From contig CASRZA010000001.1 in NCBI GenBank assembly GCA_949439935.1, positions 1,391 through 65,390 on the forward strand: 64,000 nucleotides of DNA, read 5' to 3'. The notes beneath the pieces are model-generated. The model was not told the origin of the DNA. It was given only the letters and a program-made list of their open reading frames with translations, and did no database searches. Of the stretch, positions 22,187 through 41,774 are shown in pieces. The position numbers were made by a program, and so were the translations under genes. Each line of letters begins with the position of its first letter. The first letter of the stretch is position 1. This stretch comes from an uncultured Bacilli bacterium. GTDB lineage: Bacteria; Bacillota_I; Bacilli_A; RF39; UBA660.

Positions 22187-25100
22187 ACCTACAAGGATAG
22201 GATTATTAAACTTTTGGCTATATGATGACGAAGAATTTGATTTTGCAGATGGTAAACTTCTCTTGAGGGGAGAAAACGGTTCTGGAAAATCGGTCACGAT
22301 GCAATCATTTATCCCACTCATTTTAGATGGAAACAAATCTCCGAAGCGATTGGACCCTTTCGGTAGTACCGATAAACACATCGAAGCTTATTTACTTGGT
22401 GGCTACGACACAGAACAAAAAAACGAAGCGACGGGATACCTCTTTATGGAATTTTATGAAGAATCGACACTTAAATATATAACGATAGGTATGGGGCTTC
22501 ACGCACGAAAAGGTCGACCAGTCGATTTTTGGGGATTCGCTATCACGGATGGCAAACGAATAAACAGAGATTTCTTTCTTTACAAAAACCATGTGCAAAA
22601 AGTACCTTTAAGCAAAAACGAATTAAGAACAGCTTTAGGCCCTATGAATACACTTGTCGATACAACTAAAGAATATAAAAAAATGGTAAATAACATTCTA
22701 TTTGGATTTCAAAATCTCGAAGATTATGATGAATTCATAAATGTATTAATTCAACTACGTAGTCCTAAGCTTTCGAAAGATTATAAACCGACCGTGTTGA
22801 TGGACATTTTAAGTAAAGTATTACAACCTCTTACAGAAGATGATTTGCGGCCTCTTTCTGAAGCAGTGGAAGAGATGGATAACACCAAAGAAAAGATTGA
22901 GCAACTGAAAAAACACTTAAAGCAATTATCTTATCTCATGCAATCTTATAGAAACTATAATGAATCGATACTCTATAAAAAAGCGAGTAATTTTAAAGAG
23001 AGCAGAGTAGCAGAGGAAAAAGCAAAAGCTGAACTTGCTGAAATTGAAAACAAAATCGTCAATGCTGAAAAGAAAATTGTTGAACTCGACCAAAGTTTAA
23101 CGGAACTTGAAATCGAACTAGAAGCAGCCAAAAAGTCTCGTTCAGAAATTGATAGCAAAGATTTAGAAAGCAATATTCAAAAAGTAAAAGAGTTAGAAGA
23201 AGCCATTACCAAATTGAACGCAGAGCTTTCAGGCTATTCTGAAAGACAAGAAGCGCTGGAAAATAAAAGACTAGACGCGGAAAAGAAAAAAAAGCACTGC
23301 GAAGATGAGTTAGCATCTCTTGAAAGAAGAATTGCAAGAACTATTAATTCTATCGATGGATTATGCAGTGAAGTCATGTTTAATGACCCAGTTTTACTTT
23401 TAAAGGATTACCAAAAAGACAATAAAAATATAATTGATTTTGATTCCATATTACAAAGGACAAATGGTCATAACCAAAAGTTATACGAAGTGCTTTCAAA
23501 ATTAAAAGAAAAAACGATAAAAGAAATACACTTCGGTGAAATAGAAAGCGAACTGAACATTCTCAACAAAGAGCAGAGCGACCTAATTCACAAATTAGAG
23601 ATAGGACAAAGTTCTTTAGAAGAAATGCTTGCTACTATGCGCGATGAAATACTTTTTATAGAAAAATCTAATCAATTTGTTAAATTCGATGCAGACGATA
23701 AAAATCGTCTTCTAAAACCGACATACGATTTTTCAAAGAGCAATTATGATGAAGCAAAGACATTCTATCAAAATCTTGCCGATTCCTACTATAAAGAAGC
23801 GAACAAAGCATTTTATTTCATCGAGAATAAATTAAAAGCTACGAAAGAAAATCTTAGTACGCTACATTGTCAACTGGAAGAACTTAAAAATCAAAAAGAA
23901 GAAGAGATACCATTAGATATAGAGGAAGAAAGTACTTTTGCATTCTTAAAGAGCCAAAATGTCCCATTTATTCCATTCTATAAAGCAGTAGACTTCATCG
24001 AGAATCTTTCCGCAAAGACAAAAAATCATATTGAGGCGACAATGCTAAAAGCAGGACTTCTTAACGCACTTCTTATCGATACGAAGGACTTAGAGAAAGT
24101 CGTCAACCATAAAGGTGTTTTCTTGACACCGGGTCCAAAAAAAAGAAACAATCTAACGAAGTACTTTAGTTGTGCAAAAAATATAGATTTCGAAAGTAAA
24201 ATTGTCATCAACGTTTTGGAGTCTTTAAGTATTGATAGCGATGAACTCATTTCTTTCAGTGAAAATTCATTTAAAATAGAGACGATTCATGGGTACGGTG
24301 CGCAAAATGAAAATCAAAAATATATCGGTATTCTTGCCAGAATTGAAGCTCATCAAAAAACTATCGATGCAAAAATGTCTGCTATCAAGGAAGTGGAAGA
24401 GACAAAGGCACAATTAGAGAAAGCTTTAGAAGAAAAGGGACTGGAAGTTCAAACAATAGAACACGAAAAAACCTTGTACCCAAATGACACGAAAGTGGAA
24501 GAAATTATCATAGGAATAAACGAGTTAGAACTTCGGCTAGATATCAAAAAAAAAGAAATTCTACAAACGGAGGAAAAAGCAACTTCATTGAAAGACTCAT
24601 TGAATATATTGTATAAAGAAATAAACGAACACAAAGATACGATTGCTCTACCATTAACTGAAGAATCAATCAGTGATGCTTTAAGTTCGTTGACAATCTT
24701 GATAAATGAAATAAATGATTTAAAAAGTGATTACCAACAATTAATACAAAATCGAGAGAATCTTTCCTTAATAGACGAAAGAATAGAAGAAATCACTGCA
24801 TCGCTCGGCGAAATATACCTCAAAATAGAAGAAAATAAAAAAACAGCTCAAAAATACATGTCTACAAAAAACAATATTGAGGAAATCCTAAACTCAGAAG
24901 AAACTAAAAAATTGAGCGAATTGCTTAGAACACTGGACGAAAAAATCGATTCGATTCCTAAGAAACAAGGTAACCTTAGAGAAGAAAAAGGGACATTGGT
25001 TGCAGATTTGACAAACTACAAAAACGCTTTAGAAAATAATCGAATTAGCTATAATACAAAAAAAGACATGACAGAGATATATAGAAATATATTTATGAAT

Positions 25101-26231
25101 GAATATAATCTAAACTATGTCATGAAATGCGAAGGAAACGATACAGAATTAGCGAATAGGGTCTTCGACCAACTATCTGCCAAGAAAAATGCAGATGAAA
25201 AAACACTTTTCGAAAACTTTGTCGACAATTACAATAAATACAAAAATGAGTTAGCGGAATACAAACTGTCATATAAAACTCTCTTTGAGACGGTGGAAGA
25301 GGGGGAATTCAAGGCTGTTTATGAAACAGCTACGAGAAGAGACTATACTGTCATTTACCAAGGCCGCACAATGAACTTATTCGCTCTTGAGAATGAACTA
25401 AACGCCTCGATAATAGAAAATGAACAAATCATAAGTGACCAAGATAGAAATCTTTTCGAAGAAATACTTTTAAAAACGGTAGGTAACAAAATTCGGGAAC
25501 ACATCGATGATGCCAAAAAGTGGATTAAGACGATAAACCAAATTATGAGAAATATGCAAACATCAAGCGCGCTATCATTCCAATTAGAATGGCATCCTAA
25601 AGATAAAGACTCGATTGACGAAATAGACACCCGCGAATTGATAAGCTTATTCAACATAAATCCAGACATGATAAAACCGTCTGACAGTGACAAACTGATA
25701 AAACACTTCCGTTCTAAATTAAAAAGTAGGATTGAAGAGGAAACCCACGAGAGCTACGCTGATATTATTTTTGACATCCTCGATTATCGCAACTGGTTCC
25801 AATTCAAAATGTATTACACGAGAGCAGGCGAAAATAGACATGAACTCACAGACAAAGTTTTCTCTGTCTTCAGTGGTGGAGAAAAAGCAAAAACGATGTA
25901 TCTACCACTTTTCACCGCGGTCTGTGCTAAACTACAAAGTGCTCGAAAGAATGCACCTCATATAGTCGCTCTCGATGAAGCTTTTGCGGGTGTCGATGAT
26001 GCAAACATTCGAGAAATGTTTGGAATCATGGGTTCACTAAATCTCGATTATATTCTCACATCACAAGCACTATGGGGAGACTTTGATACGATTAAAGAAT
26101 TAGGAATATCGGAATTGTTAAGACCGAATAATTCTTCGGTTGTAGGAATAAGACGATATCATTGGAACGGATTTGTAAAAGAAGTAGTACAAAAAAGGAA
26201 AGTGGAAGATGAACCTATGGACATATTTTAA
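22176..26231 (+). CDS. jetC: SMC-like ABC ATPase with long coiled coil (JetC/MksB-like)
   Basis: N-terminal Walker A GENGSGKS, very long heptad-rich coiled-coil middle, C-terminal ABC signature SGGEK and Walker B HIVALDEAF. ~1350 aa, matching the SMC-like component of the conserved four-gene (TIGR02677-80 type) operon. Confidence 0.7.
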   Translation: MNYKPTRIGLLNFWLYDDEEFDFADGKLLLRGENGSGKSVTMQSFIPLILDGNKSPKRLDPFGSTDKHIEAYLLGGYDTEQKNEATGYLFMEFYEESTLKYITIGMGLHARKGRPVDFWGFAITDGKRINRDFFLYKNHVQKVPLSKNELRTALGPMNTLVDTTKEYKKMVNNILFGFQNLEDYDEFINVLIQLRSPKLSKDYKPTVLMDILSKVLQPLTEDDLRPLSEAVEEMDNTKEKIEQLKKHLKQLSYLMQSYRNYNESILYKKASNFKESRVAEEKAKAELAEIENKIVNAEKKIVELDQSLTELEIELEAAKKSRSEIDSKDLESNIQKVKELEEAITKLNAELSGYSERQEALENKRLDAEKKKKHCEDELASLERRIARTINSIDGLCSEVMFNDPVLLLKDYQKDNKNIIDFDSILQRTNGHNQKLYEVLSKLKEKTIKEIHFGEIESELNILNKEQSDLIHKLEIGQSSLEEMLATMRDEILFIEKSNQFVKFDADDKNRLLKPTYDFSKSNYDEAKTFYQNLADSYYKEANKAFYFIENKLKATKENLSTLHCQLEELKNQKEEEIPLDIEEESTFAFLKSQNVPFIPFYKAVDFIENLSAKTKNHIEATMLKAGLLNALLIDTKDLEKVVNHKGVFLTPGPKKRNNLTKYFSCAKNIDFESKIVINVLESLSIDSDELISFSENSFKIETIHGYGAQNENQKYIGILARIEAHQKTIDAKMSAIKEVEETKAQLEKALEEKGLEVQTIEHEKTLYPNDTKVEEIIIGINELELRLDIKKKEILQTEEKATSLKDSLNILYKEINEHKDTIALPLTEESISDALSSLTILINEINDLKSDYQQLIQNRENLSLIDERIEEITASLGEIYLKIEENKKTAQKYMSTKNNIEEILNSEETKKLSELLRTLDEKIDSIPKKQGNLREEKGTLVADLTNYKNALENNRISYNTKKDMTEIYRNIFMNEYNLNYVMKCEGNDTELANRVFDQLSAKKNADEKTLFENFVDNYNKYKNELAEYKLSYKTLFETVEEGEFKAVYETATRRDYTVIYQGRTMNLFALENELNASIIENEQIISDQDRNLFEEILLKTVGNKIREHIDDAKKWIKTINQIMRNMQTSSALSFQLEWHPKDKDSIDEIDTRELISLFNINPDMIKPSDSDKLIKHFRSKLKSRIEEETHESYADIIFDILDYRNWFQFKMYYTRAGENRHELTDKVFSVFSGGEKAKTMYLPLFTAVCAKLQSARKNAPHIVALDEAFAGVDDANIREMFGIMGSLNLDYILTSQALWGDFDTIKELGISELLRPNNSSVVGIRRYHWNGFVKEVVQKRKVEDEPMDIF

Positions 26232-27459
26232 AGAAAGAAGAGGTTTTGACAGGTTACTCATTGCTCTTAAGGAAAAATACATTTCTTTAGGACGATACAG
26301 TGGAACTGTCGCATTAGACAATTTGACCGAGCTGGAAGCAGAAGAACTGTCAAAATTTTTTGGACAGAAACTTTATCCAGGCGAATCCTTCAAAACCTCT
26401 TTTTCAAAAATAGAAAAAAAGCTAAAAAACACGATTTATGAAAATTTCTCCTGGGAGACAGTGTTTATCAACTACTTCGGAAAACAACCTATCCCAAAAG
26501 CTACCATCCGAAACCAAAAGAGAGAAACTGAGCAACAATTTTTCAGAAATATTGCAAATAATCTTTCACCAACATTAAGACAAGAATTTGGCAGAATCGT
26601 GCAAGAAAAGAGTTCGATACATTCTTTATTAGTGAAAAGGTATCGCAAGGAAAAGAACTTTGAGAAAGAACTGTCCAACTTATTAGAAATTATCGAAAAT
26701 TTGAAAGAACTCACACCAAGCACTCTTTCTTTGATTGCATCTCATACGGGAAATCCACACTTTTTGGATATGGGTACACAAAACAATAGTTTGTTCATAA
26801 AAATTTTGGCTCTGTATAAAGGACTAGAAGAACCATTGACAAATCAAGAAAAAATTGATTTCCTTTCTGAATTGGGAATTGCAGTGGATGATTTATCAAA
26901 CTATGCGATTACCTATATGCTCGACAGCAATACGACTTTTATTAAAAGCTTTAAAGAAGCAGAAGAACCATTAAACATTAACCTTCATAATATCGAAAAA
27001 ATAGATAACTTATTTACTAAAATTGGTCATGTGTTCCTCTTTGAAAATCCGTCTATTCTATCTAAATTGTCTTATTTAAATGTCCCTATTATTATCACTT
27101 CGGGTAATCCAAACTATGTAGTTTATAAGCTTTTAGACAAGCTTGTACAGAATAAGATTTGTATCCATTACAACGGTGATTTTGATCCAGAAGGTCTTAT
27201 AATTGCTAACAATCTTAAAAATCGATACCCTACTATGCAATTGTTTTGCTATGAGGGGCGAGATTTTTACAATACAATATCGGATAATATATTAAATGAG
27301 CCTCGCTTGAAAAAACTACGTCTTGTAGAATGTTCAGATTTGCAAAACATAAAAAGATTGCTCTTAAAAGAAAAACGATGTGGTTATCAAGAGAATAATT
27401 TAGAAAGAATAAAGGAGTATATCGAAAAAATAACAGTTAAGCAATCGGTAGAAGTCTAA
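26209..27459 (+). CDS. jetD: Toprim-domain protein (JetD/MksG-like)
   Basis: Fourth gene, overlapping the jetC stop. The C-terminal region has a Toprim-like layout: VPIIITSGNP, then CIHYNGDFDPEG (DxD). Confidence 0.6.
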   Translation: MNLWTYFKERRGFDRLLIALKEKYISLGRYSGTVALDNLTELEAEELSKFFGQKLYPGESFKTSFSKIEKKLKNTIYENFSWETVFINYFGKQPIPKATIRNQKRETEQQFFRNIANNLSPTLRQEFGRIVQEKSSIHSLLVKRYRKEKNFEKELSNLLEIIENLKELTPSTLSLIASHTGNPHFLDMGTQNNSLFIKILALYKGLEEPLTNQEKIDFLSELGIAVDDLSNYAITYMLDSNTTFIKSFKEAEEPLNINLHNIEKIDNLFTKIGHVFLFENPSILSKLSYLNVPIIITSGNPNYVVYKLLDKLVQNKICIHYNGDFDPEGLIIANNLKNRYPTMQLFCYEGRDFYNTISDNILNEPRLKKLRLVECSDLQNIKRLLLKEKRCGYQENNLERIKEYIEKITVKQSVEV

Positions 27460-27564: not shown

Positions 27565-27869
27565 GTGTTTTATATGAAAAATACTTACGGTAACTTAGAC
27601 AGAGTTTTAACAGGCATTGTAATTGACCCTGGGCACGGAGGCGCGGATGGAGGGGCTTCTGGAAACGGAATTGTGGAAAAAAATATGACTTTGGATATAA
27701 GCAATTACATGTTTAACAGATTTAAAGAGTTGGGTGTTCCCGTAGCAATGACGCGAACTGGAGATGTAGAGTTGACTTCGTCGACAAGGCCTAGAAAGGT
27801 TCTAGATGCATTTGGAAGTGGAAAAGATGTGATTGTCTTATCTAATCACATAAATGCAGGAGGTGCGGA
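27565..27869 (+). pseudogene. N-acetylmuramoyl-L-alanine amidase (Amidase_3 + LysM), 5' segment
   Basis: IDPGHGGADGGA...LSNHINAGGAE, then the frame runs into inserted DNA (FSYHC*). Read across the junction, the frame continues exactly at 41320 (NAGGAEGAEVIY). Confidence 0.75.
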
Positions 27870-28226
27870 GTTCAGTTACCATTGTTAGATTAGTTGGGTA
27901 TAAGGACAAATAATTGAAATAAAATATATAAAAAGTAGAATTTTAGAAATTGTAATAACCCTAAAATTTAAATTTCGTTGAATCAATCTAAAGTGCACAA
28001 TTAAGTGCATTTTAATAAAAAAAACGAATTTCCAAAAGAAAGTGCACAATAATAAAGAAAAAAACATCTAATTTTTATGAAAAAATGATTGAATAATAAA
28101 CAAAAAGCGATAATTGTTTCACGACAAAAAGATTACAGTGAAATCAAATTATAAAAGTAAGCGCACAATAATTTAACTACTGTAAGTGAGATATATTATA
28201 CAAAAATAAAATAAATAGTCAATAAT

Positions 28227-28252
28227 GAATTTGACAGCATGAATCCAATGTT
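28227..28252. repeat. 26-bp direct repeat flanking the IS (GAATTTGACAGCATGAATCCAATGTT), copy 1
   Basis: Perfect 26/26 match to 29497-29522. Confidence 0.8.
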
Positions 28253-29496
28253 TGTTGAGTTACAATAGATGTGAGACCTGAGTATGTACAAAAAAAGATT
28301 TAAGTCGTAAAATATCGTTTAAGAAAAAACACGAAAGGACTTAAATCTATGAACAGTATAACACAAAAAGCAAATAATTCAAGATATTTACCACACGAGG
28401 TAGAAACACGTATATACGCAGTCAAATTATATAGAGGAGGTAATTCAGTTAAATATGTGTGTAGAAAATACCATATTTCTAAGGCTTCTCTTATGAGATG
28501 GAATAAAAAATATGATGGAACAAATGAATCTTTAATTGATAAATCTCATAGACCACTTACTCCTCATCCTAATGCTCATACTGATGAAGAACTAAAGTGG
28601 ATTTGGAATTATGTTAGAAGAACACCCAATATTACTCTAGGTGAATTATGGGTTAAACTTAAAAGTAATAAAGGTTACTCTAGACATCCCGGCAGCCTTT
28701 ATAGAGTTTTGAGAAGAAATGGATTTAAATATAAGATTAATATCAATCATACTTCTAAATATGTTCCTAAACCATATGATACTCCTAAGTCTTTAGGAGT
28801 AAAATGGCAGATTGATGTTAAATATGTTCCAAGAGAATGTCTAACTAATTCTATACCAAGTGATTTAAAGTTTTATCAATATACTTGCATTGATGAGGCA
28901 TCAAGAGAAAGATTTCTCTATTGGTATGACGAACAATCACCTGCCTCTACAGTAAATTTTATAAATAGATCTATCGAATACTTTGGATATAAACCTAAAA
29001 CTATTCAGACAGACAATGGACAGGAATTCACTTGGAATAGAGAAAAGATGAAAAAGATACATCCAGTCGATGAACTGTGCATTTCTCTTAATATAGAACA
29101 TTACAAAATTAAACCTAGAACGCCTAGACATAATGGCAAGGTAGAAAGAAGTCATCGAAGTGATAATGAGAGATTTTACAACAATCATTCTTTCTACTCT
29201 TTAGAAGACTTACAAAAACAAGGTGAGGTCTACCTCAAAAGATCTAATAATATCCCTATGCAAGTTTTAAAATATAAAACACCTTTAGAACAAAGAATGC
29301 TTTTATCTTTTGAAAGTTAATAATTATAATCCAAAATAAAAAGTTAGATCAAGGTAAGATAAACTTGGCTTCGCCAAACCTTGACTAACTTTCCATTTTG
29401 AATTCTCCTATGTCTAACTTCAAAAGAAAAAAAACGATATTTTGACCTACATCATTTTCTTGTAAAAGTTGGTCTCACATCATTTACATTTCTACA
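28253..29496 (+). mobile_element. insertion sequence (~1.24 kb), IS481/IS1202-like DDE (rve) transposase
   Basis: Imperfect terminal inverted repeats begin TGT and include GATGTGAGACC ... AAAATATCGTTT blocks at both ends. It holds a single transposase ORF and is flanked by perfect 26-bp direct repeats. Confidence 0.6.
28349..29320 (+). CDS. DDE (rve) transposase with N-terminal HTH
   Basis: HTH-like N-terminus. Integrase-core motifs WQIDVKYV, TDNGQEF and PRTPRHNGKVERSHR (D-D-E with the GK-ER signature). Confidence 0.7.
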   Translation: MNSITQKANNSRYLPHEVETRIYAVKLYRGGNSVKYVCRKYHISKASLMRWNKKYDGTNESLIDKSHRPLTPHPNAHTDEELKWIWNYVRRTPNITLGELWVKLKSNKGYSRHPGSLYRVLRRNGFKYKININHTSKYVPKPYDTPKSLGVKWQIDVKYVPRECLTNSIPSDLKFYQYTCIDEASRERFLYWYDEQSPASTVNFINRSIEYFGYKPKTIQTDNGQEFTWNREKMKKIHPVDELCISLNIEHYKIKPRTPRHNGKVERSHRSDNERFYNNHSFYSLEDLQKQGEVYLKRSNNIPMQVLKYKTPLEQRMLLSFES

Positions 29497-29522
29497 GAAT
29501 TTGACAGCATGAATCCAATGTT
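29497..29522. repeat. 26-bp direct repeat flanking the IS, copy 2
   Basis: Identical to 28227-28252. Confidence 0.8.
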
Positions 29523-29588
29523 GTGATGATAAAGGCTTGCCAACAGGCTAAAAAAAGCCTATTGGCAGTTAAGCCTATCACAACATTG
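29516..29588. repeat. long imperfect palindrome (~30-bp arms) overlapping the direct repeat
   Basis: CAATGTTGTGATGATAAAGGCTTGCCAACAGGC ... GCCTATTGGCAGTTAAGCCTATCACAACATTG. The arms are near reverse complements. Confidence 0.55.
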
Positions 29589-29756
29589 CCTCCGTAAAAT
29601 TCAAAATACAATTTATATAGTTTAGTGCACAACTTCTGTGCACTTCATTTTTTAAAATACAAAAATTTAAATTTTAAATATAAATAAATTGTAAATACTT
29701 AAAAATGTCGAAAAATATGTTATAATAATAGTTAAAAATAGCAGTATCTTTTTAAG

Positions 29757-30584
29757 ATGGATTCTGCTTATTTTTTGAAGTATGGAGTTGACAATATGAA
29801 GTACAAATTATTAGATCTAGAATTTGGGGTTGAAGCTTGTTTAGTATATATAGATGAATATACAGATGAACTGAAAAAATTAATTGATGATAATTTTTTA
29901 GAGATTATTAAAGGTAAAATGATAGCCGAAAGGACTTCTGATAATTGTGTAACTGATACTTTAAAAGATGCAGCAAAATATATTCTTAAGAAAAATAGAA
30001 CTTCATCTGCTAAGGTTGGAATTATTGGAGAATTTTTGTTTCACTGCTTTATGCGATTAAGTGAAATTTCTTCTAGATTTTTATCTTGTTGTCCAACAAT
30101 AGGTTATAGTGATACATATCAGGGATTTTTTAAAGGATTTGATGGTTGTTATTATTATCAAGATGAAATTTGGATAACTGAAATAAAATCAAAAGAAAGA
30201 AGTATAGATTTAGATAAAGATAATAAAGAAAAATTAACTTTCGCAGCAAATCAGATAGAACAGGAAGTTAACGATGAAGATATAAATAGATGGGAAAAAA
30301 CAAAAGGATATGTATTTAGTCAATTGACAAATGAAGAGGTGGATGAAAAAAATATATATAAGTTACTAACTAAAAATAGTAAGAATAATTATAATAAAAT
30401 TTTAGGTACAATGTTAATATACGATAGTAAAGAATTTGACGTTAATTATATAAAAGGGTATTTAGATAAATTGAAAGATAAAAATGTTGTTAATCAAAAG
30501 TTATTTATTATGTGTATAAGGAATTATGATTATGACACTTTATATAATTATATTTTAATGAAGTATGGTGATTCTTACGAATGA
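29757..30584 (+). CDS. HamA-like putative PD-(D/E)xK nuclease (Hachiman-like effector)
   Basis: 275-aa protein overlapping the start of the SF2 helicase gene. Candidate D...ExK motif (YYYQDEIWITEIKSK). Assignment is by architecture, not by an alignment I could run. Confidence 0.4.
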   Translation: MDSAYFLKYGVDNMKYKLLDLEFGVEACLVYIDEYTDELKKLIDDNFLEIIKGKMIAERTSDNCVTDTLKDAAKYILKKNRTSSAKVGIIGEFLFHCFMRLSEISSRFLSCCPTIGYSDTYQGFFKGFDGCYYYQDEIWITEIKSKERSIDLDKDNKEKLTFAANQIEQEVNDEDINRWEKTKGYVFSQLTNEEVDEKNIYKLLTKNSKNNYNKILGTMLIYDSKEFDVNYIKGYLDKLKDKNVVNQKLFIMCIRNYDYDTLYNYILMKYGDSYE

Positions 30585-33015
30585 TAATATGTCTTTAAAT
30601 ATACAATTTGTAAAAGATTATATTGAGTTCTTAAAAGGTAATATTTTTAAAATTAATGGTTTATTAAATTATTCATTTTATTTATTGATAAAGAAAAAAG
30701 ATGAGTTGAGTTTAAACTTTGCCTATAGCATCATAATAAATTATACATTAAAATTTAAAGATTACAAACCTTTAATAGAATTTTCAATTATATTCGGATA
30801 TTCTCCAATATTAAATATAATATATAATAGAATTGGGATTGTAACTTCTAAAGAAATAGAAAATTTTATTGCAAATTATTATATAGAAGACAATAAATAT
30901 AACGATAAGATACTTACTTCAGGTCAAAAAGTAATGTATAAAATGATTGAATCCAAAACGGATTATTCTATTATTGCACCAACATCATTTGGGAAGACAG
31001 ATTTAATGTTAGAAAGTGCTCTTAAATCAATTGGTGACTGTATAATAATAGTTCCACTCATTGCTTTGTTGGGCCAAATTAAATTAGATTTATATCTTTT
31101 AGCTAAAAAAGAAAATTGCAAAATAAAATTAATAACGCATCATGAAATAAAAAGAAGTAATAATTATAAAAATATTTATATATTAACGCAGGAACGATGC
31201 TTTGAATTAATTAAAAGAAATAAGTTAGAAAATATTACAGATCTTTTTATAGATGAATCTCATAAATTATTGAATAGTAATGAACGCAGTTATAAATTAT
31301 CTCAAATAATTCTTCTTTTAAAAAAGAGATTTAATTGTTGTATCAAATATTATTCACCTGTCTTATATGAACCTAAATCAATTAGAATTAAAGGAGTTCA
31401 TAATAAATCATTAGAAATGGTGAATGGAATAAGAGATATGAAATGTTATCATTATTATTTTTATCATAATAACCATAAAGAAATATATATTCCTAATACA
31501 CTTAGAATGACAGAAGCATATATTTTAGATGATAAGTATTCAAGTTTTGACGAATACATATTAAAAAATTGTAAAAATAAAAATATAGTTTTTCTAAATT
31601 CTCCTAAGGATGTAGAAAAAACAGCTATTAATTTTGCAAGAAATATAAAAAATGATTTAGATATTGAATGCGATGATTTAATAGAATTTATTGGTGAAGA
31701 ATATTATATAATAGATATTATAAAAAAAGGAGTTATTTATATTCATGGGGAAATGCAAGATATAATCAAGTCATATCTATTGGATATTTATAGAAAAAAC
31801 AGAAATATAAAATACTTATTTACGAATTCAAGTATATTAGAAGGAGTAAATACTCCAAGCGACGCATTATTCATATATGACTACAGTATTGGTAGAGAAA
31901 TAATGAGGCCACAGGATTTTATTAATATACGTGGAAGAATAAATAGAATAAATGAAATAGTAAAATCCGGAGATTTAAGTAGGCTTATATGTGAAACGCA
32001 TTTTAATTGTCAGAGTGATTATAAGAAACAAAAAATAAGAAAAGAAATTATTGACCCGTGTTATGGAATTTATCATAAAGATGAAATAGATAATGAATAT
32101 TTGATCGATTATTCAAAAGAAAATAAAAGCTCAGAATTTATTTCTAGTTTAGAACAAATTAAATTGATTGATGATGAAATTGATATTAAATCTATTTTTA
32201 ATGAAGATATTAAAAATAATAAAAGTAGTATAATAAATAAATGTTTATTAAATAATATTAAATTAAATGATAATCAAGAAAAATTGTTGGAAGAAAGGAT
32301 ATCAAATTATTATGGCAAAAAGATTAATAATATAAATGAATTGTTATCTGCAATTAATACTATTTTTAAATTAAATGAATCAGATGAAATAGCAATCTCC
32401 CGTTTATCAAATGATTCTGCAAGAAATTTTTACTCTCTGTTAATACAATGGATTATTGAAGGGAAAACAATAAAAGAAAAAGCTTTAAGATTAACAAATT
32501 ATTATAGAAAAAAACCTTTTGGAGAATTAATATATGTTGGAAAAAGAGGAGATATATGTGCTGAGTTAATTAATAATAAACTGATTATCTCTCACTCGGG
32601 ATTTAGTTATTTGAAAGTTGATAAAAAAGGAAATCCAATTAAACTAAAAAAATTATGGACAATTAATAATGCAGATTTAAAGAAATTATATAATATATGC
32701 GTTATTAAATTAAAGGTAGAAGAAGATTTCATTTCGTTCAAATTAATACCATATATAGAATCTTTAGAAGATATTAATGATACAATTATTGATAAAAATC
32801 TGTATAATTTAATAAAATATAGATCTAATGATTTATTTGAAATTGAATTGATTAAGGAGGGCTTTTCTATTTATCTTGCCAGAATATTAAATAATGAAAT
32901 TTATAAAAAATATATTCATTTTTCTGATTTAGGGGTAATTATAGATTCAAAAATTCTTAATTTTTTCACTGGTAATAAAATAGTATATGAAGAATTAATA
33001 AGATATATATCATAA
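30565..33015 (+). CDS. SF2 DExH-box helicase (HamB-like)
   Basis: Motif I PTSFGKT, motif II FIDESHKLL (DESH), motif VI-like QDFINIRGRINR. ~816 aa with N- and C-terminal extensions. Confidence 0.55.
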   Translation: MVILTNDNMSLNIQFVKDYIEFLKGNIFKINGLLNYSFYLLIKKKDELSLNFAYSIIINYTLKFKDYKPLIEFSIIFGYSPILNIIYNRIGIVTSKEIENFIANYYIEDNKYNDKILTSGQKVMYKMIESKTDYSIIAPTSFGKTDLMLESALKSIGDCIIIVPLIALLGQIKLDLYLLAKKENCKIKLITHHEIKRSNNYKNIYILTQERCFELIKRNKLENITDLFIDESHKLLNSNERSYKLSQIILLLKKRFNCCIKYYSPVLYEPKSIRIKGVHNKSLEMVNGIRDMKCYHYYFYHNNHKEIYIPNTLRMTEAYILDDKYSSFDEYILKNCKNKNIVFLNSPKDVEKTAINFARNIKNDLDIECDDLIEFIGEEYYIIDIIKKGVIYIHGEMQDIIKSYLLDIYRKNRNIKYLFTNSSILEGVNTPSDALFIYDYSIGREIMRPQDFINIRGRINRINEIVKSGDLSRLICETHFNCQSDYKKQKIRKEIIDPCYGIYHKDEIDNEYLIDYSKENKSSEFISSLEQIKLIDDEIDIKSIFNEDIKNNKSSIINKCLLNNIKLNDNQEKLLEERISNYYGKKINNINELLSAINTIFKLNESDEIAISRLSNDSARNFYSLLIQWIIEGKTIKEKALRLTNYYRKKPFGELIYVGKRGDICAELINNKLIISHSGFSYLKVDKKGNPIKLKKLWTINNADLKKLYNICVIKLKVEEDFISFKLIPYIESLEDINDTIIDKNLYNLIKYRSNDLFEIELIKEGFSIYLARILNNEIYKKYIHFSDLGVIIDSKILNFFTGNKIVYEELIRYIS

Positions 33016-33065
33016 GTTATACAATTAAATACATAGCGTATTTATATATAGTTAGGAATTTAGAA

Positions 33066-33905
33066 ATGAGTGAAAAAGAATTGGATTCAAGTGTAAAGGA
33101 ATATACAGAATACAACAAATCAAACACATATATAAAACAATTACAATGGGATATGGCCATTGGCCTTCAAGAAGTTGATAATTTACATCCTTCTAAATAT
33201 TTTGAAAAACTTATAAATGATAATGTAGAAGGTAACTTAAGCATTGAAGAAGTAAAAAAAGAATTGAGAAAATACTACATTGAAAGAGAGAATAAAAATG
33301 AATTAAATCACAATGAAAAAGAATGCGACTTTGTTTCTACAAGAATAGTTGAATTATTACAGCAAGATAATTTTGAATTATCGGTCGATTACTTAAAGTA
33401 TATTCATAAATTTCTATTTCAAGACGTATACGAATTTGCTGGTGAATTTAGAAAAATAGATTTCTCTAAACACGAGAAGATATTAAATAATGATTCAGTA
33501 GCATATGGAAATTGTAGAACTTTAAAAGAATCTTTAGAATATGATTTATCTTTAGAAATTAGTAAAGACTATAATAAGATGAATCCAATCGAAGTTATTA
33601 ACAATATAACAAAGTTTTCATCTAGCATATGGCAAGTTCATCCATTCAGAGAAGGCAATACTAGAACTACTGCACTGTTTATAGAAAAATATCTAACTAG
33701 CCTCGGATATAGTGTAGATAATACCTTATTTAAAGATAAATCCGTGTATTTTAGAAATGCGTCAGTAAGAAGTAATTATTTTAATAATTATATGAATGTA
33801 AAGGAAGACTGTAGTTATTTAATTAAATTTTATGAAAATCTATTATTGGGTAAAAATAATAATTTACACTTAGAAGATTTAATTGTTAAAGAATTGTTTA
33901 ATTAA
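33066..33905 (+). CDS. Fic/DOC-family protein
   Basis: Fic core motif HPFREGNTRTTALF, a variant of HxFx(D/E)GNGRxxR. Confidence 0.65.
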   Translation: MSEKELDSSVKEYTEYNKSNTYIKQLQWDMAIGLQEVDNLHPSKYFEKLINDNVEGNLSIEEVKKELRKYYIERENKNELNHNEKECDFVSTRIVELLQQDNFELSVDYLKYIHKFLFQDVYEFAGEFRKIDFSKHEKILNNDSVAYGNCRTLKESLEYDLSLEISKDYNKMNPIEVINNITKFSSSIWQVHPFREGNTRTTALFIEKYLTSLGYSVDNTLFKDKSVYFRNASVRSNYFNNYMNVKEDCSYLIKFYENLLLGKNNNLHLEDLIVKELFN

Positions 33906-34019
33906 TTATCTCTGAAAAACTAAGTACAATTCTACAATATTTTATAAAAATAAAATATTTTCGTTACACCCCTGGACTTATCACAAATTATTTGTTATTA
34001 TATATATAGGTGATGACTT

Positions 34020-35324
34020 ATGCAAAAAAAACCACTTGCTATTGATTTATTTTGTGGAGCCGGAGGCATGAGCGAAGGACTGCTTCAAGCAGGTTTTCAC
34101 ATAATTTATTCTAATGACATTAGCAAAGATGCAATGAGAACTTACATAAATAGACATGAGCAATTGGGACTATTTCACAAAAAGAATACATTTGCAAGTT
34201 GTAAAGATATAAAAGAACTTGACGGAAAACAAATATTTAAATCAATATCTGAAATTGATGAATATAAAAATCAAGAAATAACTATTGATGCTATTTTTGG
34301 AGGTCCTCCATGTCAAGGATTTAGTCGAGCAGGCAAAAGAAATGCCAATGATCCTAGAAATCAGTTATTTAAAGAATATATTAGAATTATAAGTGAGATA
34401 AGGCCAAAATATGTTGTTATGGAAAACGTAGAAGGATTTTTAGATACTATATTTATAGGATTTATAGGATTAGATGGAATAAAATACAGTAATGAAAAGG
34501 CTCCTTTTATTTTAAAAAATGAATTTAAAAAAATTGGATATAACACTATAGAACCACAATTATTAAATGCTTCAGATTATGGTGTGCCTCAAAATAGAAA
34601 GCGAATGATTTTCATTGCCTATTTGCCATCAGTTTCAATGCCAGTATATCCATTAAAATTTAAAAGTGAAAAAATTGTACTAAAAGATGCAATTAATGAT
34701 TTAATTAATCCATCGAATAAAAGTCCATATGCTAAAGAATGTATTCAAGGCCGAACAAGAAGAATAGATGGAACTTCAGTAACATATAATAGAAGCGAAA
34801 AATTAAATAATGAAATTTCGACTCATACAGATTTAATAAATGAAAGATTTTCTTTATATAAACAGGGTGAATCTACATCGGACTTAAGAAAAAGAATTAT
34901 GCTAAATGGTGTTGACCTTTCAAAGAAAAAACACATTTTACAAGAATTAACCAAAACTTATGGAACTACAGAAGATTCAATAATAAAAAAATTTAGAAAA
35001 AAGAATCTACGTAAGGAGGATTTAGACAACTTATTAACAAAAAAAGGAATTAGAAAAAAACTCAATAATAATTTACCATCCCCTACAATGGTAACTCTTC
35101 CAGATGATTTCATTCATCCGACACAAAATAGAATATTGACTGTACGAGAAATGGCAAGAATTCAATCTTTTGATGATAGTTTTGAATTCCTAGGGAAGAG
35201 AACTACTGGAGGACCACGAAGAAAAGTTGAAGTTCCCCAGTATACTCAAGTTGGAAATGCAGTTCCTCCTTTACTCGCAAAAGCTATTGCTGAACAAATA
35301 ATTACAGCAATAAATAAATCATAA
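34020..35324 (+). CDS. DNA (cytosine-5)-methyltransferase
   Basis: Motif I DLFCGAGGMSEG, motif IV GGPPCQGFS, motif VI ENV, motif VIII QNRKRMIFIAY, motif X GNAVPP. Confidence 0.9.
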   Translation: MQKKPLAIDLFCGAGGMSEGLLQAGFHIIYSNDISKDAMRTYINRHEQLGLFHKKNTFASCKDIKELDGKQIFKSISEIDEYKNQEITIDAIFGGPPCQGFSRAGKRNANDPRNQLFKEYIRIISEIRPKYVVMENVEGFLDTIFIGFIGLDGIKYSNEKAPFILKNEFKKIGYNTIEPQLLNASDYGVPQNRKRMIFIAYLPSVSMPVYPLKFKSEKIVLKDAINDLINPSNKSPYAKECIQGRTRRIDGTSVTYNRSEKLNNEISTHTDLINERFSLYKQGESTSDLRKRIMLNGVDLSKKKHILQELTKTYGTTEDSIIKKFRKKNLRKEDLDNLLTKKGIRKKLNNNLPSPTMVTLPDDFIHPTQNRILTVREMARIQSFDDSFEFLGKRTTGGPRRKVEVPQYTQVGNAVPPLLAKAIAEQIITAINKS

Positions 35325-35346
35325 AAAAGGGCAATGCCCCTTTTTT
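35322..35346. terminator. bidirectional Rho-independent terminator (AAAAAAGGGCAATGCCCCTTTTTT)
   Basis: GC stem flanked by an A-run and a T-run, sitting between convergent genes. Confidence 0.65.
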
Positions 35347-36223
35347 ATATAGAAAAATATGAGTACTTTTCATCTAAACATTTTAATTCTTCGCTTAAAA
35401 CTTTTCTAACATTAAAATTTTGATTGCTAAAAAATACACGTGCGGGTAATTCACCAACTGACTGAGCAACCCCTGATTTTGTTTCGTAGCCCCAATAAAC
35501 TCCACCAGATAAATTAGATACTCTTTTTACAGCAACCGAATTCAGATTAAGTTTATCAAGTTTTACAGTAGGGACTGTTACAAATGAATATGAAAATTTT
35601 TTACAATCCTTAATAGAAAAATTATTTCTTCCAATGGTAATATTACTATTTTCAAAATGCTTTACTTTATAAATCATATCCCAAAGCATAGGAATTTGAG
35701 CATTATCATTCCAGTTAGTTTTGCATTGAATAATGTTAATTTCTATGTTATCAAAGTTATAGTTAATAAAATCATTTACTATACCTATTATATTTTCACC
35801 ATTGCCAAAGTAATGATCATCATAATCACCATAAAATGTGATTGCAATAATATCAGCTTCTGTATTTGATATAAAGCTTCCATAGTTCACGGTAATAGCA
35901 TCTCTGATTATTGATGGCAAAATTCCGTTAACAGGTCTCACTATTACTGTTCTACTACCAATAGAGCATAAGTTTAAATACCAACATATTAAATTTTCCC
36001 AAATTTTTCCACCGGATGAGACTGTCGATTGATTTCTTTCGTTTCCGGTTGATTTAAATATCTCTCCAAGTTGTGATCCAAGACTAGTTAATTCGTCTAT
36101 AGTTCTATTTTTAAATTTAGAATTAATTTGTTTTCTCCATTCTGGCCATACATTTGCAAAAGAATTAACAGAAAACAGATTATTAACAGCTAACTTCCGA
36201 TAATTCTCAATAAAGTCATTCAT
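35345..36223 (-). CDS. putative type II restriction endonuclease, cognate to the C5-MTase
   Basis: 292-aa gene convergent with the MTase and sharing its terminator. Possible PD-(D/E)xK elements (EADIIAI...IEINIIQCK). Assignment is by context. Confidence 0.4.
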   Translation of the reverse strand: MNDFIENYRKLAVNNLFSVNSFANVWPEWRKQINSKFKNRTIDELTSLGSQLGEIFKSTGNERNQSTVSSGGKIWENLICWYLNLCSIGSRTVIVRPVNGILPSIIRDAITVNYGSFISNTEADIIAITFYGDYDDHYFGNGENIIGIVNDFINYNFDNIEINIIQCKTNWNDNAQIPMLWDMIYKVKHFENSNITIGRNNFSIKDCKKFSYSFVTVPTVKLDKLNLNSVAVKRVSNLSGGVYWGYETKSGVAQSVGELPARVFFSNQNFNVRKVLSEELKCLDEKYSYFSI

Positions 36224-37005
36224 TTAAACCACCATCGACATTATAACACGATATAAGTAGCATACGCAATACATTGAGTTAAACTAAAAACAAAAGTATT
36301 AATACTTCTACTACCGGTATTAATTTACACATATTTTGTTTCTCAACTAATATACAATATATTAATTAGCGTAGTACAGGTTTAATAGTTTCAATCATAA
36401 CTACAGCACCATGTCAGTACTTCGTTAATAGAAGTAAAATAAAATCTGCAATTTTTAATTGTTACTTTGATTTATATAAAGAAATCTACCTAGCAGTACA
36501 CAAGAAAATTTTCTTTCATTACACCGTATTAGGTATTTATTAAAAGTCAATAACATTTTCTAACGAACTATCTTAAGTAATAAAGGAAGCAAATTATATA
36601 AAAAATTAAATCCGATAGTATATCCAAATTACGAGGAATTTAATGTTAAATACTTTTCCAAACTATTTCTTCCTTTTAATAGCGAGCGATTTAATAAATT
36701 AATTATTCCTATAAAAGAAGAAATAAAAAAAATATTAAGAAAAATAGATTCCGAAAAATCTGATAGGAATCTTAAAGAATACATTACGATATTTAATAAG
36801 GTAAATAGTATAAATAAAAAATATCAATAGTTTTAACTGCACTAATATTACTGCAACTATCTTGTTAAATATTTCTAGTACTTACAGACATTATATTGCA
36901 ATTAATCAGACATTTTCATCACTAAAATCACAGCATTTATTCCTAATTGACTTTAGACAATCCTATGATACAATATGATAGAATACGAAATAATTATATA
37001 TTCAG

Positions 37006-37037
37006 CACTAACCAATCAACTGGTTAGTGATTTTTTG
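37006..37037 (+). terminator. Rho-independent terminator in a non-coding stretch (CACTAACCA-loop-TGGTTAGTG + T6)
   Basis: Perfect 9-bp stem followed by a T-run, inside a ~1.1-kb ORF-free region. Confidence 0.5.
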
Positions 37038-37329
37038 TATTCGAGAATCTATCAAAAAAAGTACTCATTATAACAATCAAATTAATATTTTTGGTACCAA
37101 TTTATCCAAAAATCACTTTAAAAAAGTGTATACAATTGTATAACACATCCCATAGTACAGGACATCTAAAGTATACGTATGTATAACGATTAGTGAAAGT
37201 GTAAACACTACCAATGATAAAAATTCCTTTTAAAATAAGGAATCACTCACCACTGGTGAGTTGATTGCAAACAGGTTTATCCTGCTTTTATTTTGGAATA
37301 TAGAAAATTATGAATTTGATTGTTAATAT

Positions 37330-37536
37330 GTGGTACCTAAAATTACAGAAAGGAAGGTGTTTAAAATGAAGTCGAATAGAACTATACAGAAGAAGTTTAG
37401 AATAGATAGAAATACTGAAAAAGCGCTCAAGAAAATACTATCTAATAATAAAATAACATTTCAATACGTTATGGAATCTTTGCTAAGAGAATATATCTAT
37501 AAAAATATCAACGTCATCACAGATACTGATAAATGA
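37330..37536 (+). CDS. small basic protein, possible DNA-binding regulator
   Basis: 68 aa, Lys/Arg-rich. No secure family. Confidence 0.3.
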   Translation: MVPKITERKVFKMKSNRTIQKKFRIDRNTEKALKKILSNNKITFQYVMESLLREYIYKNINVITDTDK

Positions 37537-37582
37537 TGAAATCTTATGGCTGACATATTTTTGTAAGTGCGTTACAATTTAG

Positions 37583-37768
37583 ATGAAAGGCGGTAAAATG
37601 AAAAAAGTAAAAGTGAATTACATAATAACAGAAGAATTTAAAACAACTAAACCAAATCTATCAGAGAAGGAATTAAAAGAGATATTTAACAAGAAATACT
37701 TTGAGTACATTAAGAGACAAGAGACGAGACTTTTCAACAAGGATAACAAAATAAAACAAACACGATAG
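37583..37768 (+). CDS. small hypothetical protein
   Basis: 61-aa ORF with an RBS, followed by a strong terminator. Confidence 0.3.
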   Translation: MKGGKMKKVKVNYIITEEFKTTKPNLSEKELKEIFNKKYFEYIKRQETRLFNKDNKIKQTR

Positions 37769-37798
37769 CTATCAGTTTAAACATACTGATAGTTTTTT
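37769..37798 (+). terminator. Rho-independent terminator (CTATCAGT-loop-ACTGATAG + T6)
   Basis: Perfect 8-bp stem followed by a T-run. Confidence 0.6.
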
Positions 37799-38022
37799 AT
37801 TGAAATTAAAGGGGGTTAAAAATGAAAAATAATAAAAATAATGACAATAGCATAACATTTAATGGTGTTATTATGAACAATAAAATTACATTTAAAGATT
37901 TAATTTTAGAATATCTTATTAAGGAGATAAAAAATGAAGAAAATGGGCTGTAATTTATTTGAATATGCGTTATTATTGAATAGTCTTAATACCCAATTAA
38001 GTAAGAAAAGAAGGAGGTACGA

Positions 38023-39678: not shown

Positions 39679-39770
39679 AAAAGCAAAGTTCAAAAACTTC
39701 GATTTTCCAATTAGGTTTTATGGATTTTAAGCGATAGCAATGATATAATATATTTATCGGAAGTGATAGT

Positions 39771-40744: not shown

Positions 40745-40754
40745 GAGGTATTTA

Positions 40755-41303
40755 ATGAACATAAGTTTTGAAAATATATTAAATGTTATTTGCCTTATTG
40801 GACTAGTAATTTTAATTTTAAGTTTTACCTTAAAAATCAATAACTTTTTCGATATTAGATCAATCCTTCATAATCATTTCAAAGTATTTCAAAATAGCTA
40901 TTTACAATTAATTAGTGTTTATATAGTTCCGATTTTTTTCGCAATATGGATTACACAACAACAGCAAGTAACAAAAGATATTTTAGACGAAATAAATTTA
41001 GTAATAACAATACTTACCTCAATGTTCTTTGCCTTCATTGGCATTATAGGATCTTTGAATATGGATAAAAAAGATGGAAATTATAAAAGAGTTGCCGAAG
41101 AAACCTTTAACTCCACTCTATTCGAAATTATGTGCTGTTTAATCTTGTTGCTCATTTCTTTCTTAATAATATTCGTTAACGATTATGACAACATATGTTT
41201 TATAAAAATGATTAGCATACCAATCTATTACTTTTTTATTATTATTATTCTAAACATATTTTTAATTCTAAAAAGAATACAGGCTATATTTAAAAATTCA
41301 TAA
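40755..41303 (+). CDS. small multi-pass membrane protein
   Basis: 182 aa with four hydrophobic segments, at the right end of E1. Confidence 0.45.
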   Translation: MNISFENILNVICLIGLVILILSFTLKINNFFDIRSILHNHFKVFQNSYLQLISVYIVPIFFAIWITQQQQVTKDILDEINLVITILTSMFFAFIGIIGSLNMDKKDGNYKRVAEETFNSTLFEIMCCLILLLISFLIIFVNDYDNICFIKMISIPIYYFFIIIILNIFLILKRIQAIFKNS

Positions 41304-41315
41304 TGGTAACTAAAC

Positions 41316-41705: not shown

Positions 41706-41774
41706 ATAGCTATATTTGGGTTAGTCTAAAATATTGCATGAAAACTAGATTTAGTATATAATAATTATCTAGAA

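Follow-up and report, generated by a model that had tools for sequence, protein, structure and literature searches.

Two overlapping genes on the + strand of the window (the whole 64,000 nt stretch of DNA from an uncultured Bacilli bacterium that was analyzed here) encode a small predicted nuclease and a helicase, and are referred to below as hamA and hamB. The longest reading frame of hamA spans positions 29757-30584 and would encode 275 aa, while hamB (30565-33015) encodes 816 aa; the 20 nt overlap between the two reading frames reported in an earlier note on this DNA was reproduced. The position given in that note for the small reading frame stands, but its length of 275 aa probably does not. 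The most likely hamA start is 29796, giving a gene at 29796-30584 and a protein of 262 aa, because the residue aligned with M14 is the start in 20 of the 23 HamA family members and because a GGAG sequence is found 8 nt before the ATG at 29796. No Shine-Dalgarno sequence was found before 29757. The hamB start is uncertain: translation could begin at 30565 or at M9 (30589), the latter omitting residues 1-8, for which the AF2 model gives a pLDDT below 50. With either start the genes are tightly coupled, and the arrangement shows that translation of hamB is closely linked to that of hamA.

Reading frames as long as hamA and hamB are far from what is expected by chance at 21-24% GC. The GC content of both genes is unusually low, as had been remarked previously (24.2% for hamA and 21.5% for hamB, compared to 33-34% for the flanks), and their GC3 is 14-15%, compared to 30-31% for the neighbouring jetC and jetD. 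An rve-family insertion sequence (IS; 28349-29320) lies 430 nt upstream of hamA; it had no megablast match in plasmids and its inverted repeats did not fix its ends. A terminator-like hairpin (29624-29644, + strand) would insulate hamA from this IS. It is followed by a promoter-like site (29699-29726, + strand; TTAAAA-16-TATAAT with a TG upstream), which is a consensus match only and constitutes weak evidence for a promoter; such sites show no enrichment over shuffled sequences in the AT-rich hamA region. For terminator-like sites, 10 were observed and 1.8 expected. The proximity of the IS and the weak promoter prediction might suggest that hamA and hamB are what remains of a decayed, non-functional Hachiman system that the IS has silenced or disrupted. 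We consider this extremely unlikely, as both reading frames are full length, with all catalytic residues intact and lengths matching those of their homologs, as an identical HamB recurs on 6 contigs drawn from several metagenome samples, and as the promoter-like site and ribosome binding site are still present between the IS and hamA.

The helicase motifs quoted in the earlier note were all located: motif I (Walker A; PTSFGKT) at residues 139-145 (30979-30999), motif II (DESH) at residues 230-233 (31252-31263) and QDFINIRGR at residues 450-458, the last forming part of motif VI (QDFINIRGRINR, residues 450-461, 31912-31947), all on the + strand. Judged by the alignment of 40 homologs, these three motifs are intact: A138-T140, S141, G143 and K144 of motif I are invariant, as are D230, E231, R458 and R461. 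Pfam identifies DEAD and ResIII domains in HamB. Two PADLOC HamB1 profiles, PDLC00190 (E-value: 3.4e-46) and PDLC00176 (E-value: 2.4e-42), match it almost from end to end, with alignments at residues 43-812 and 97-800 of 816. The long non-helicase extensions noted previously are seen in the AF2 model (pLDDT 90.5) as a six-helix N-terminal bundle (residues 13-109) and a C-terminal region (residues ~480 to 816). HamB-specific regions outside of the RecA core are therefore supported by the PADLOC coverage, by the alignment of positions 111-806 to a solved HamB (see below) and by the modelled bundle, a putative equivalent of the N-terminal helical domain of the HamB protein of Escherichia coli ECOR31.

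When a HamB family profile (40 sequences) was searched against PDB sequences, the best match was 9wh1_B (E-value: 3.9e-52), which is the HamB protein of the K. pneumoniae trypsin-HamAB system (bioRxiv 10.1101/2025.09.03.673762). AbpB (8zue_B) was second (E-value: 8.8e-31), and the best helicase from outside of Hachiman was Hel308 (E-value: 1.3e-12). Foldseek matches of the HamB model include Hel308, PolQ-helicase, Mtr4, Ski2 and HamB, the HamB chains 8vxa_A and 8vx9_B having an E-value of 1e-15. Based on the PADLOC, Pfam, PDB profile, AF2 and Foldseek results, the protein is an SF2 helicase of the Ski2/Hel308-like class, as HamB is. An ordinary RecQ or DinG helicase, the alternative raised in the earlier note, was rejected: neither is among the matches listed by Pfam, NCBIfam, PADLOC and the PDB sequence search, nor among the top 50 PDB fold matches.

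By fold alone, HamB is slightly nearer to PolQ-helicase and Hel308 (E-value: 3e-17, the top fold matches) than to ECOR31 HamB. It also matches a PHROG family annotated as a Holliday junction branch migration helicase (E-value: 2.7e-13), and the gene pair is located on a mobile element adjoining an IS and a recombinase. These observations could indicate that the protein is a Hel308/PolQ-like repair or recombination helicase which, with an accessory nuclease, serves the replication, recombination or maintenance of the element's own DNA and not defence. This explanation is exceedingly improbable for five reasons. First, in the sequence profile comparison the E-value for HamB is better than that for Hel308 by ~40 orders of magnitude. 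Second, the PADLOC HamB profiles span the HamB-specific N- and C-terminal regions. Third, the partner protein is a HamA homolog. Fourth, the same pair also occurs without this element, in unrelated contexts. Fifth, the neighbouring genes are defence genes (restriction-modification, Fic and Wadjet) and include no replication genes.

The earlier note had suggested a HMMER search against DUF1837. The 275 aa protein matched neither Pfam PF08878.16 nor the PADLOC HamA models, even at E-values up to 10, and direct HMM searches of Pfam, PADLOC, NCBIfam and PHROGs found nothing. Similarly, none of the 23 HamA family members (the window protein and 22 retrieved homologs) matched PF08878.16 in a local hmmscan, but precomputed PF08878.17 matches are on record for seven relatives; we attribute these discordant outcomes to the model version. 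A profile built from the family found 217 representatives, and 5 of 10 sampled distant matches passed the PF08878 HamA gathering score. When the family was aligned to these five proteins with hhalign, the probability was 99.6% (E-value: 1.4e-23) over 243 columns of ~262, with the catalytic motifs in register; these proteins were drawn from the family's own profile matches, and this test is not fully independent. In addition, PADLOC HamA1 or HamA2 matched six family members (E-values: 1.6e-6 to 9.8e-6). A missed profile threshold does not exclude homology. The small protein is established by these sequence comparisons as a homolog of DUF1837/HamA: no direct match was obtained, while the homology itself follows from the reach of the family profile to PF08878-passing proteins, the hhalign result and the PADLOC-matching relatives.

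The predicted catalytic residues of HamA (numbered according to the 275 aa reading frame) are encoded at 30030-30188 on the + strand: E92 (30030-30032), D129 (30141-30143), E142 (30180-30182) and K144 (30186-30188). E92 (in GEFLFH), D129 (in GFDGCYY), E142 and K144 are invariant among all 23 sequences, and in Pfam-validated HamA proteins they correspond to the motifs GELLvH, GFD and TEvKS, which are likewise invariant. In the segment QDEIWITEIKSK, where a D…ExK motif had been suggested, E142 and K144 are the sole invariant residues. The ExK portion of that motif was thus correctly placed, but its aspartate was not, since position 136 varies (D, N, E or G). The predicted catalytic aspartate is D129 of GFDGCYY, not that of "QDE", and the predicted nuclease site E92/D129/E142/K144 is intact. 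In the AF2 model of HamA (pLDDT 87), D129 opens the strand formed by residues 130-134, and both E142 and K144 lie within the strand formed by residues 137-146.

This model has a PD-(D/E)xK core with HamA-specific insertions. The structural comparison to HamA that had been proposed was performed by searching the PDB with Foldseek, and the only matches with an E-value below 0.4 were to HamA chains: HamA 8vxy_A (E-value: 3.7e-4, TM 0.48/0.52) and AbpA 8zue_A (E-value: 8.1e-4). The third match had an E-value of 0.41. The similarity to solved HamA is moderate, with a TM of about 0.5 and an rmsd of 7 Å. The tie to the solved HamA structures is one of fold only, because PDB sequence searches with the HamA protein, the HamA family profile and a profile of Pfam-validated HamA proteins found no HamA chain. 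Together with the reading frame, homolog starts, ribosome binding site and hhalign result, these data describe hamA as a gene for a divergent DUF1837/HamA PD-(D/E)xK nuclease.

In each of the 12 related loci collected, the hamA homolog is succeeded by a homolog of hamB. HamA and HamB identities drop in parallel among these relatives (76/76, 68/71, 49/55, 50/51, 45/51 and 45/49%), showing that the gene pairing is conserved and that the two proteins co-diverge across unrelated genomes. The HamA clade consists of ~20 clusters at 90% identity, found in metagenome assemblies (some labelled as gut) and in metagenome-assembled genomes labelled as Bacilli, Arcobacter and Ca. Scatovivens. Given these results, we place a probability of roughly 85% on the overlapping pair being a minimal two-gene Hachiman system, with a HamA nuclease, a HamB helicase and a predicted anti-phage role. 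The Hachiman-like reading of the gene layout offered in the earlier note is borne out by the HamB profiles, the HamA homology and fold and the conserved pairing, and the refuting outcomes that the note had named were not observed.

Comparison with characterized systems indicates that this pair is a divergent addition to the already known Hachiman system, and that the underlying biology is not new. The layout is the same as that of ECOR31 HamAB (PDB 8VX9/8VXA/8VXY; PMC12278908), with hamA followed by hamB. Both HamA proteins are ~250 aa with a D…ExK motif (E138/K140 in ECOR31 and E142/K144 here), both HamB proteins are Ski2-like DExH helicases with an N-terminal helical domain, and the top fold match of the window HamA is HamA. 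In contrast, sequence similarity between the two HamA proteins is not detectable (the fold TM being about 0.5), HamB is 816 aa here and about 1,170 aa in ECOR31, and the profile E-value for ECOR31 HamB is only 2e-10 and confined to RecA2. The closest solved helicase by sequence is instead that of K. pneumoniae Hachiman-MBL (PDB 9WH1), which is comparable in length (853 aa) and aligns over almost the entire protein. Unlike that system, HamA here lacks an extra domain while retaining the E/D/ExK residues. Assignment to the Hachiman-MBL (trypsin-HamAB) subtype was rejected, as HamA carries no trypsin domain and neither a trypsin nor an MBL gene lies nearby.

A second relationship is to AbpAB of E. 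coli K-12 (PDB 8ZUE), which is a Hachiman system with a Cap4-DUF1837 fusion (PMC11914072). As described above, AbpB is the second-closest solved helicase and AbpA the second fold match of HamA. However, AbpA is 531 aa in length with an N-terminal Cap4-type nuclease, and its HamA-like domain has been described as catalytically inactive (Tuck et al., PMC12278908), whereas the protein here is a single 262 aa domain with an intact site. An AbpAB-type Hachiman was rejected on the grounds that HamA (262-275 aa) has a single domain and no additional Pfam domain.

A mechanism can be proposed by analogy, using the model developed for E. coli ECOR31 HamAB (Tuck et al., Cell 2024, PMC12278908). The N-terminal helical domain of HamB would bind HamA, holding the nuclease in check as the complex scans intact dsDNA. 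Phage replication or DNA damage would then expose a free 3' end of ssDNA that enters the helicase, and ratcheting of HamB with ATP hydrolysis would release or activate HamA. The nuclease would finally degrade both phage and host DNA, resulting in abortive infection. Each of these steps, from formation of the complex and its trigger to the degradation of DNA, is carried over from ECOR31 in this proposal, as is the activity against phages.

Downstream of hamB are fic (33066-33905, + strand; Pfam Fic), which starts 50 nt past the hamB stop codon, and a gene for a dcm-type C5 methyltransferase (34020-35324, + strand; Pfam DNA_methylase and PADLOC MTase_II, E-value: 8e-94). Because the terminator scan identified no + strand terminator-like site between hamA and 35320, hamA, hamB, fic and dcm may be co-transcribed. 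A 292 aa reading frame convergent with dcm, which had no family or PDB match in Pfam, PADLOC, NCBIfam, PHROGs or the PDB, is from its position alone the probable restriction partner of the methylase. Defence genes (restriction-modification, Fic and Wadjet) are the neighbours of hamAB.

The spacing and orientation of fic raise the question of whether the system comprises three or four genes, with Fic (perhaps joined by the Dcm methylase) working together with HamAB as an additional effector or regulator. Toxin-antitoxin genes are known to accompany some Hachiman subgroups (PMC13064477), and in type III-B Hachiman such a role is filled by PezAT or AbiJ. Furthermore, a Fic homolog (41% identity) is encoded directly upstream of hamA in a distant locus (L012), and the window Fic has a PADLOC match to PDC-S72, a family of candidate defence proteins (E-value: 3e-76). 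PDC-S72 is, however, a single-gene candidate system, fic does not accompany hamAB in 10 of the 12 related loci, and the two Fic-bearing cases have the gene on opposite sides of hamAB. With the HamA nuclease site intact, a replacement effector is unneeded, and defence genes cluster for reasons besides joint function. A partnership of Fic with HamAB therefore seems very unlikely, and the minimal two-gene Hachiman system is preferred.

The earlier note had placed the gene pair in an intervening element, and the boundaries of such an element could be identified. Element A (27870-41319; 13.45 kb, 25.8% GC) is flanked by a 10 bp core, GAGGTGCGGA, at 27860-27869 and 41320-41329. It encodes a 551 aa large serine recombinase (38023-39678, + strand) with Pfam Resolvase, Recombinase and Zn_ribbon_recom domains, for which the nearest NCBIfam families are CcrB and XisF. 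Element A splits an amidase-LysM gene (Amidase_3 and four LysM domains). When the element is deleted in silico, the reading frame of this gene is recovered exactly (joined sequence: NHINAGGAEGAEVIY), and the reconstituted 419 aa amidase is colinear with uninterrupted genes over residues 18-419 (61-62% identity). A prophage origin was rejected, as PHROGs gave no phage structural or morphogenesis family match for the 10 element reading frames tested. The hamAB pair is carried as cargo by this integrative element, which is low in GC and not a prophage. The reconstituted attB junction (AATGCAGGAGGTGCGGAAGGTGCAGAAG) had no exact match in metagenome contigs, where a codon-degenerate attB query found only more distant uninterrupted homologs. 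The circular attP junction is predicted to read …AAACCCACGAGGTGCGGAGTTCAGTTACC….

Element A resembles skin, SPβ in spsM and gin in gerE (PMC5595907, PMC4191935, PMC5025042) in that it lies inside a coding gene, has a large serine recombinase and a short identical flanking core, and can be removed in silico with restoration of the frame; like gin, it is not a prophage. It differs from these elements in three respects: its host gene is no recognised sporulation gene, two separate elements interrupt that one gene (the second being 3.2 kb in length), and its cargo consists of defence genes. The interrupted amidase was matched to no sporulation family. A nearby CwlD-like gene (TIGR02883, 177 bits, below the cut-off) and a weak GerS-like gene hint at a spore-forming organism.

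Hachiman is already well characterized, and the worth of this locus lies in the annotation gap and in the carrier. The window HamA is unseen by the searched Pfam PF08878.16 and PADLOC v2.0.0 models, and we infer that the system would go unreported by pipelines requiring both genes, with HamB left annotated as an orphan helicase. This blind spot could be closed by adding the HamA clade to the HamA profiles. The carrier is unusual as a compact, non-prophage serine-recombinase element with hamAB, a putative restriction-modification pair and a Fic protein. It provides a clean example of gene-intervening elements that carry defence genes, and offers a test of element excision. Two further readings, which do not exclude one another, were graded jointly and are together unlikely: that hamA, hamB and fic (with or without dcm) form one transcription unit, constituting a new Hachiman subtype, and that the carrier is excised developmentally. 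If the former were true, a Fic-domain toxin would modulate or supplement HamAB, much as is envisaged for PezAT and AbiJ in the type III-B systems linked to them. If the latter were true, the amidase would be reconstituted and the defence cargo lost from the terminally differentiating cell, linking immunity to a programmed genome rearrangement.

The earlier note described two overlapping genes of unusually low GC content, and both observations held. The longest hamA ORF (29757-30584, + strand, 275 aa) and the hamB ORF (30565-33015, + strand, 816 aa) overlap by 20 nt. The GC contents of hamA and hamB are 24.2% and 21.5%, versus 33-34% in the chromosomal flanks, and their GC3 is 14-15%, versus 30-31% for the adjacent jetC and jetD. 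In A1, the alignment of HamA and its homologs, 20 of the 23 sequences start at the residue aligned with M14 (numbered from 29757); a GGAG lies 8 nt 5' of the corresponding ATG (29796), while no ribosome-binding-site-like sequence was found upstream of ATG 29757. Based on these two features, hamA most likely spans 29796-30584 (262 aa). The start of hamB could be either 30565 or M9 (30589); in the AF2 model the first eight residues are disordered.

The helicase is identified as a HamB. The motifs PTSFGKT (residues 139-145), DESH (230-233) and QDFINIRGR (450-458) are present as first quoted, and an alignment of 40 homologs shows no variation at K144, D230, E231, R458 or R461. Pfam detects only generic DEAD, ResIII and Helicase_C domains. 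In contrast, 12 PADLOC HamB profiles match the protein, the best being HamB1 PDLC00190 (E = 3.4e-46, residues 97-800); PDLC00176 aligns residues 43-812 with profile positions 58-842 of 845 (E = 2.4e-42). Both alignments extend to regions beyond the RecA core. When a profile of the 40 homologs was run against all PDB sequences, it matched HamB of the Klebsiella pneumoniae trypsin-HamAB (9wh1_B, E = 3.9e-52, positions 111-806; bioRxiv 10.1101/2025.09.03.673762), AbpB (8zue_B, E = 8.8e-31), Hel308 (2va8_A, E = 1.3e-12) and ECOR31 HamB (8vx9_B, E = 2.1e-10). In the AF2 model (pLDDT 90.5, pTM 0.89), an N-terminal six-helix bundle (residues 13-109) precedes two RecA domains, and the C-terminal region is mixed. 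Foldseek places this fold in the Ski2/Hel308/PolQ-helicase class, with HamB chains at ranks 10 and 11 (E = 1e-15). Grouping with RecQ or DinG, which would have argued against Hachiman, was rejected as neither family is among the matches listed in any search.

HamA is harder to recognize. Direct profile searches gave no Pfam, PADLOC, NCBIfam or PHROG match even at E ≤ 10, and no PDB sequence matched. The proposed DUF1837 similarity was therefore not found directly; it emerged through the family profile. Five independent lines of evidence converge on a divergent HamA. A profile built from the 22 homologs in A1 and searched against 1.84 billion representatives found 217 proteins, most of them ~260 aa long and matched over their full length. 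Five of 10 sampled distant matches exceed the PF08878 (HamA) gathering score (29-46 bits, cut-off 25), and hhalign aligns A1 with these five over 243 columns (probability 99.6%, E = 1.4e-23) with the motifs in register: GEFLFH with GELLvH, GFDGCYY with GFD and WITEVKS with WxTEVKS. PADLOC HamA1 or HamA2 profiles match six A1 members (1.6e-6 to 9.8e-6), and seven A1 relatives carry precomputed PF08878.17 annotations. These annotations were not reproduced by hmmscan even at E ≤ 10, probably because the local Pfam copy holds PF08878.16; the two versions seem to differ in their coverage of this clade.

For the HamA AF2 model (pLDDT 87, pTM 0.87), Foldseek gave just two PDB chains below E = 0.4, both of HamA type: ECOR31 HamA (8vxy_A, E = 3.7e-4, TM 0.48/0.52) and AbpA (8zue_A, E = 8.1e-4). 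The D…ExK motif first assigned to QDEIWITEIKSK stands in part: E142 and K144 are the only invariant residues there. The invariant aspartate lies elsewhere, in GFDGCYY (D129), and E92 (GEFLFH) is likewise invariant in A1. In the model, D129 opens a β-strand that is preceded by the helix with E92 and followed by the strand with E142 and K144; this is the canonical PD-(D/E)xK arrangement.

The pairing is conserved, with a HamB homolog directly following the HamA homolog in each of the 12 related loci retrieved (L001-L012), which came from metagenome assemblies and MAGs labelled Bacilli, Gammaproteobacteria, Arcobacter and Ca. Scatovivens. Identities to the window proteins fall together (HamA/HamB: 76/76, 68/71, 49/55, 50/51, 45/51 and 45/49%). 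The closest relatives are from uncultured "Bacilli" MAGs. An identical HamB occurs in six contigs of the collection, and four of these loci, from JGI metagenomes, were retrieved and have the same gene layout. The window pair has every testable Hachiman-defining feature (HamA family homology, fold and catalytic motif, a HamB helicase with its motifs, and conserved pairing) apart from direct recognition by current HamA profiles, on which the evidence is mixed, with no match for the window protein but matches for some relatives. We conclude that it belongs to the known Hachiman system, as the earlier note had proposed, and is a divergent new member.

By homology to ECOR31 HamAB (PMC12278908), HamA would be held by the N-terminal helical domain of HamB while the complex scans intact dsDNA. 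Entry of a 3' ssDNA end into the helicase would lead to ATP hydrolysis and ratcheting, which would release or activate HamA to degrade phage and host DNA. The HamA domains of AbpA and trypsin-HamA are described as catalytically inactive, and these systems depend on Cap4 or MBL nucleases (PMC12278908; bioRxiv 10.1101/2025.09.03.673762). In contrast, the window HamA keeps the invariant E/D/ExK set, with no extra domain or third gene; for this reason a direct, one-step ECOR31-type mechanism is expected. The system fits neither the AbpAB nor the Hachiman-MBL subtype.

The pair was also correctly described as cargo. An Amidase_3 fragment (27565-27888) ends after NHINAGGAE; the remainder of the catalytic domain is found from ~41320 (GAEGAEVIY…YYTVKAGDT), and the LysM repeats continue from ~44867 (LWTIAKNHG…). 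Two elements thus split one Amidase_3 + 4×LysM gene into three pieces (27565-27869, 41320-41671 and 44867-45530). Element A (27870-41319, 13.45 kb, GC 25.8%), which contains hamAB, is bounded by the core GAGGTGCGGA (27860-27869 and 41320-41329) and encodes a large serine recombinase (38023-39678). Element B (41672-44866, 3.2 kb, GC 24.2%) is bounded by GGTGATAC (41664-41671 and 44867-44874) and encodes another (43290-44855). Joined in silico, the pieces encode a 419-aa protein colinear over residues 18-419 with uninterrupted genes on other metagenome contigs (61-62% identity). The exact attB junction of element A is absent from the metagenome collection. The only recognizable cargo of element B is a HAD-family hydrolase (41775-42434), a relative of YjjG-type noncanonical pyrimidine nucleotidases (TIGR02254, E = 7e-20, below the family cut-off).

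The gene order along element A is: an rve-family IS, hamAB, Fic and Dcm methyltransferase genes, a convergent orphan, small ORFs, the serine recombinase gene and three ORFs of no known function. None of 10 ORFs tested matched phage structural PHROG families. Two ORFs in different frames, 39771-40349 (192 aa) and 40292-40744 (150 aa), overlap each other; they may be one frameshifted gene, since the former weakly matches PHROG families of ~310-324 positions. The IS encodes a 323-aa transposase (28349-29320) with HTH and integrase core domains, 430 nt upstream of hamA. No terminal repeats could be delimited for it, and megablast found no match in the plasmid collection.

The Fic-domain protein (33066-33905; PADLOC candidate PDC-S72, E = 3e-76) begins 50 nt after hamB, and its motif HPFREGNTRTTA deviates from the canonical HPFx(D/E)GNGRxxR. 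In L012, a Fic gene (8850-9671, 41% identity) lies just upstream of hamA, so that Fic flanks hamAB in two distinct loci, on opposite sides. A functional link with HamAB is possible; the adjacency could be coincidence or an accessory association such as that reported for PezAT and AbiJ (PMC13064477). A terminator-like palindromic hairpin (35320-35349) separates the Dcm-type C5 methyltransferase gene (34020-35324) from the 292-aa orphan (35345-36223, - strand), which has no family or PDB match. Because a methylase and an MwoI_N restriction enzyme are encoded at the corresponding positions of L001-L004, the orphan may, by position only, be a novel restriction endonuclease.

Directly upstream of the amidase gene is a complete Wadjet type II system (19519-27459): jetA (19519-20991, DUF2397), jetB (20945-22186, DUF2398), jetC (22161-26231, JetC2 E = 0 with PADLOC) and jetD (26209-27459, JetD2 E = 6e-99). 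The Wadjet/amidase locus is a defence hotspot. The region is flanked by genes for a CwlD-like amidase (14962-15621; TIGR02883, 177 bits, cut-off 221) and a weakly GerS-like lipoprotein (49811-50851; E = 2e-10), which hint that the host may be a spore-forming member of the Bacillota. A 248-aa ORF (48230-48976), whose long N-terminal half is of low complexity and rich in Lys/Thr and whose C-terminus is hydrophobic, is overlapped by several spurious-looking ORFs in other frames.

In a distant relative with 50% HamA identity (L005 3220-4848 and L006 289-1917), hamAB also lies ~3 kb from a large serine recombinase gene, and elements with such recombinases may often be the carriers of this HamA clade. 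The clade is missed by the searched copies of Pfam.16 and PADLOC v2, so tools relying on them would leave hamAB uncalled. Here, these defence genes are carried by a serine-recombinase element that intervenes in a gene.
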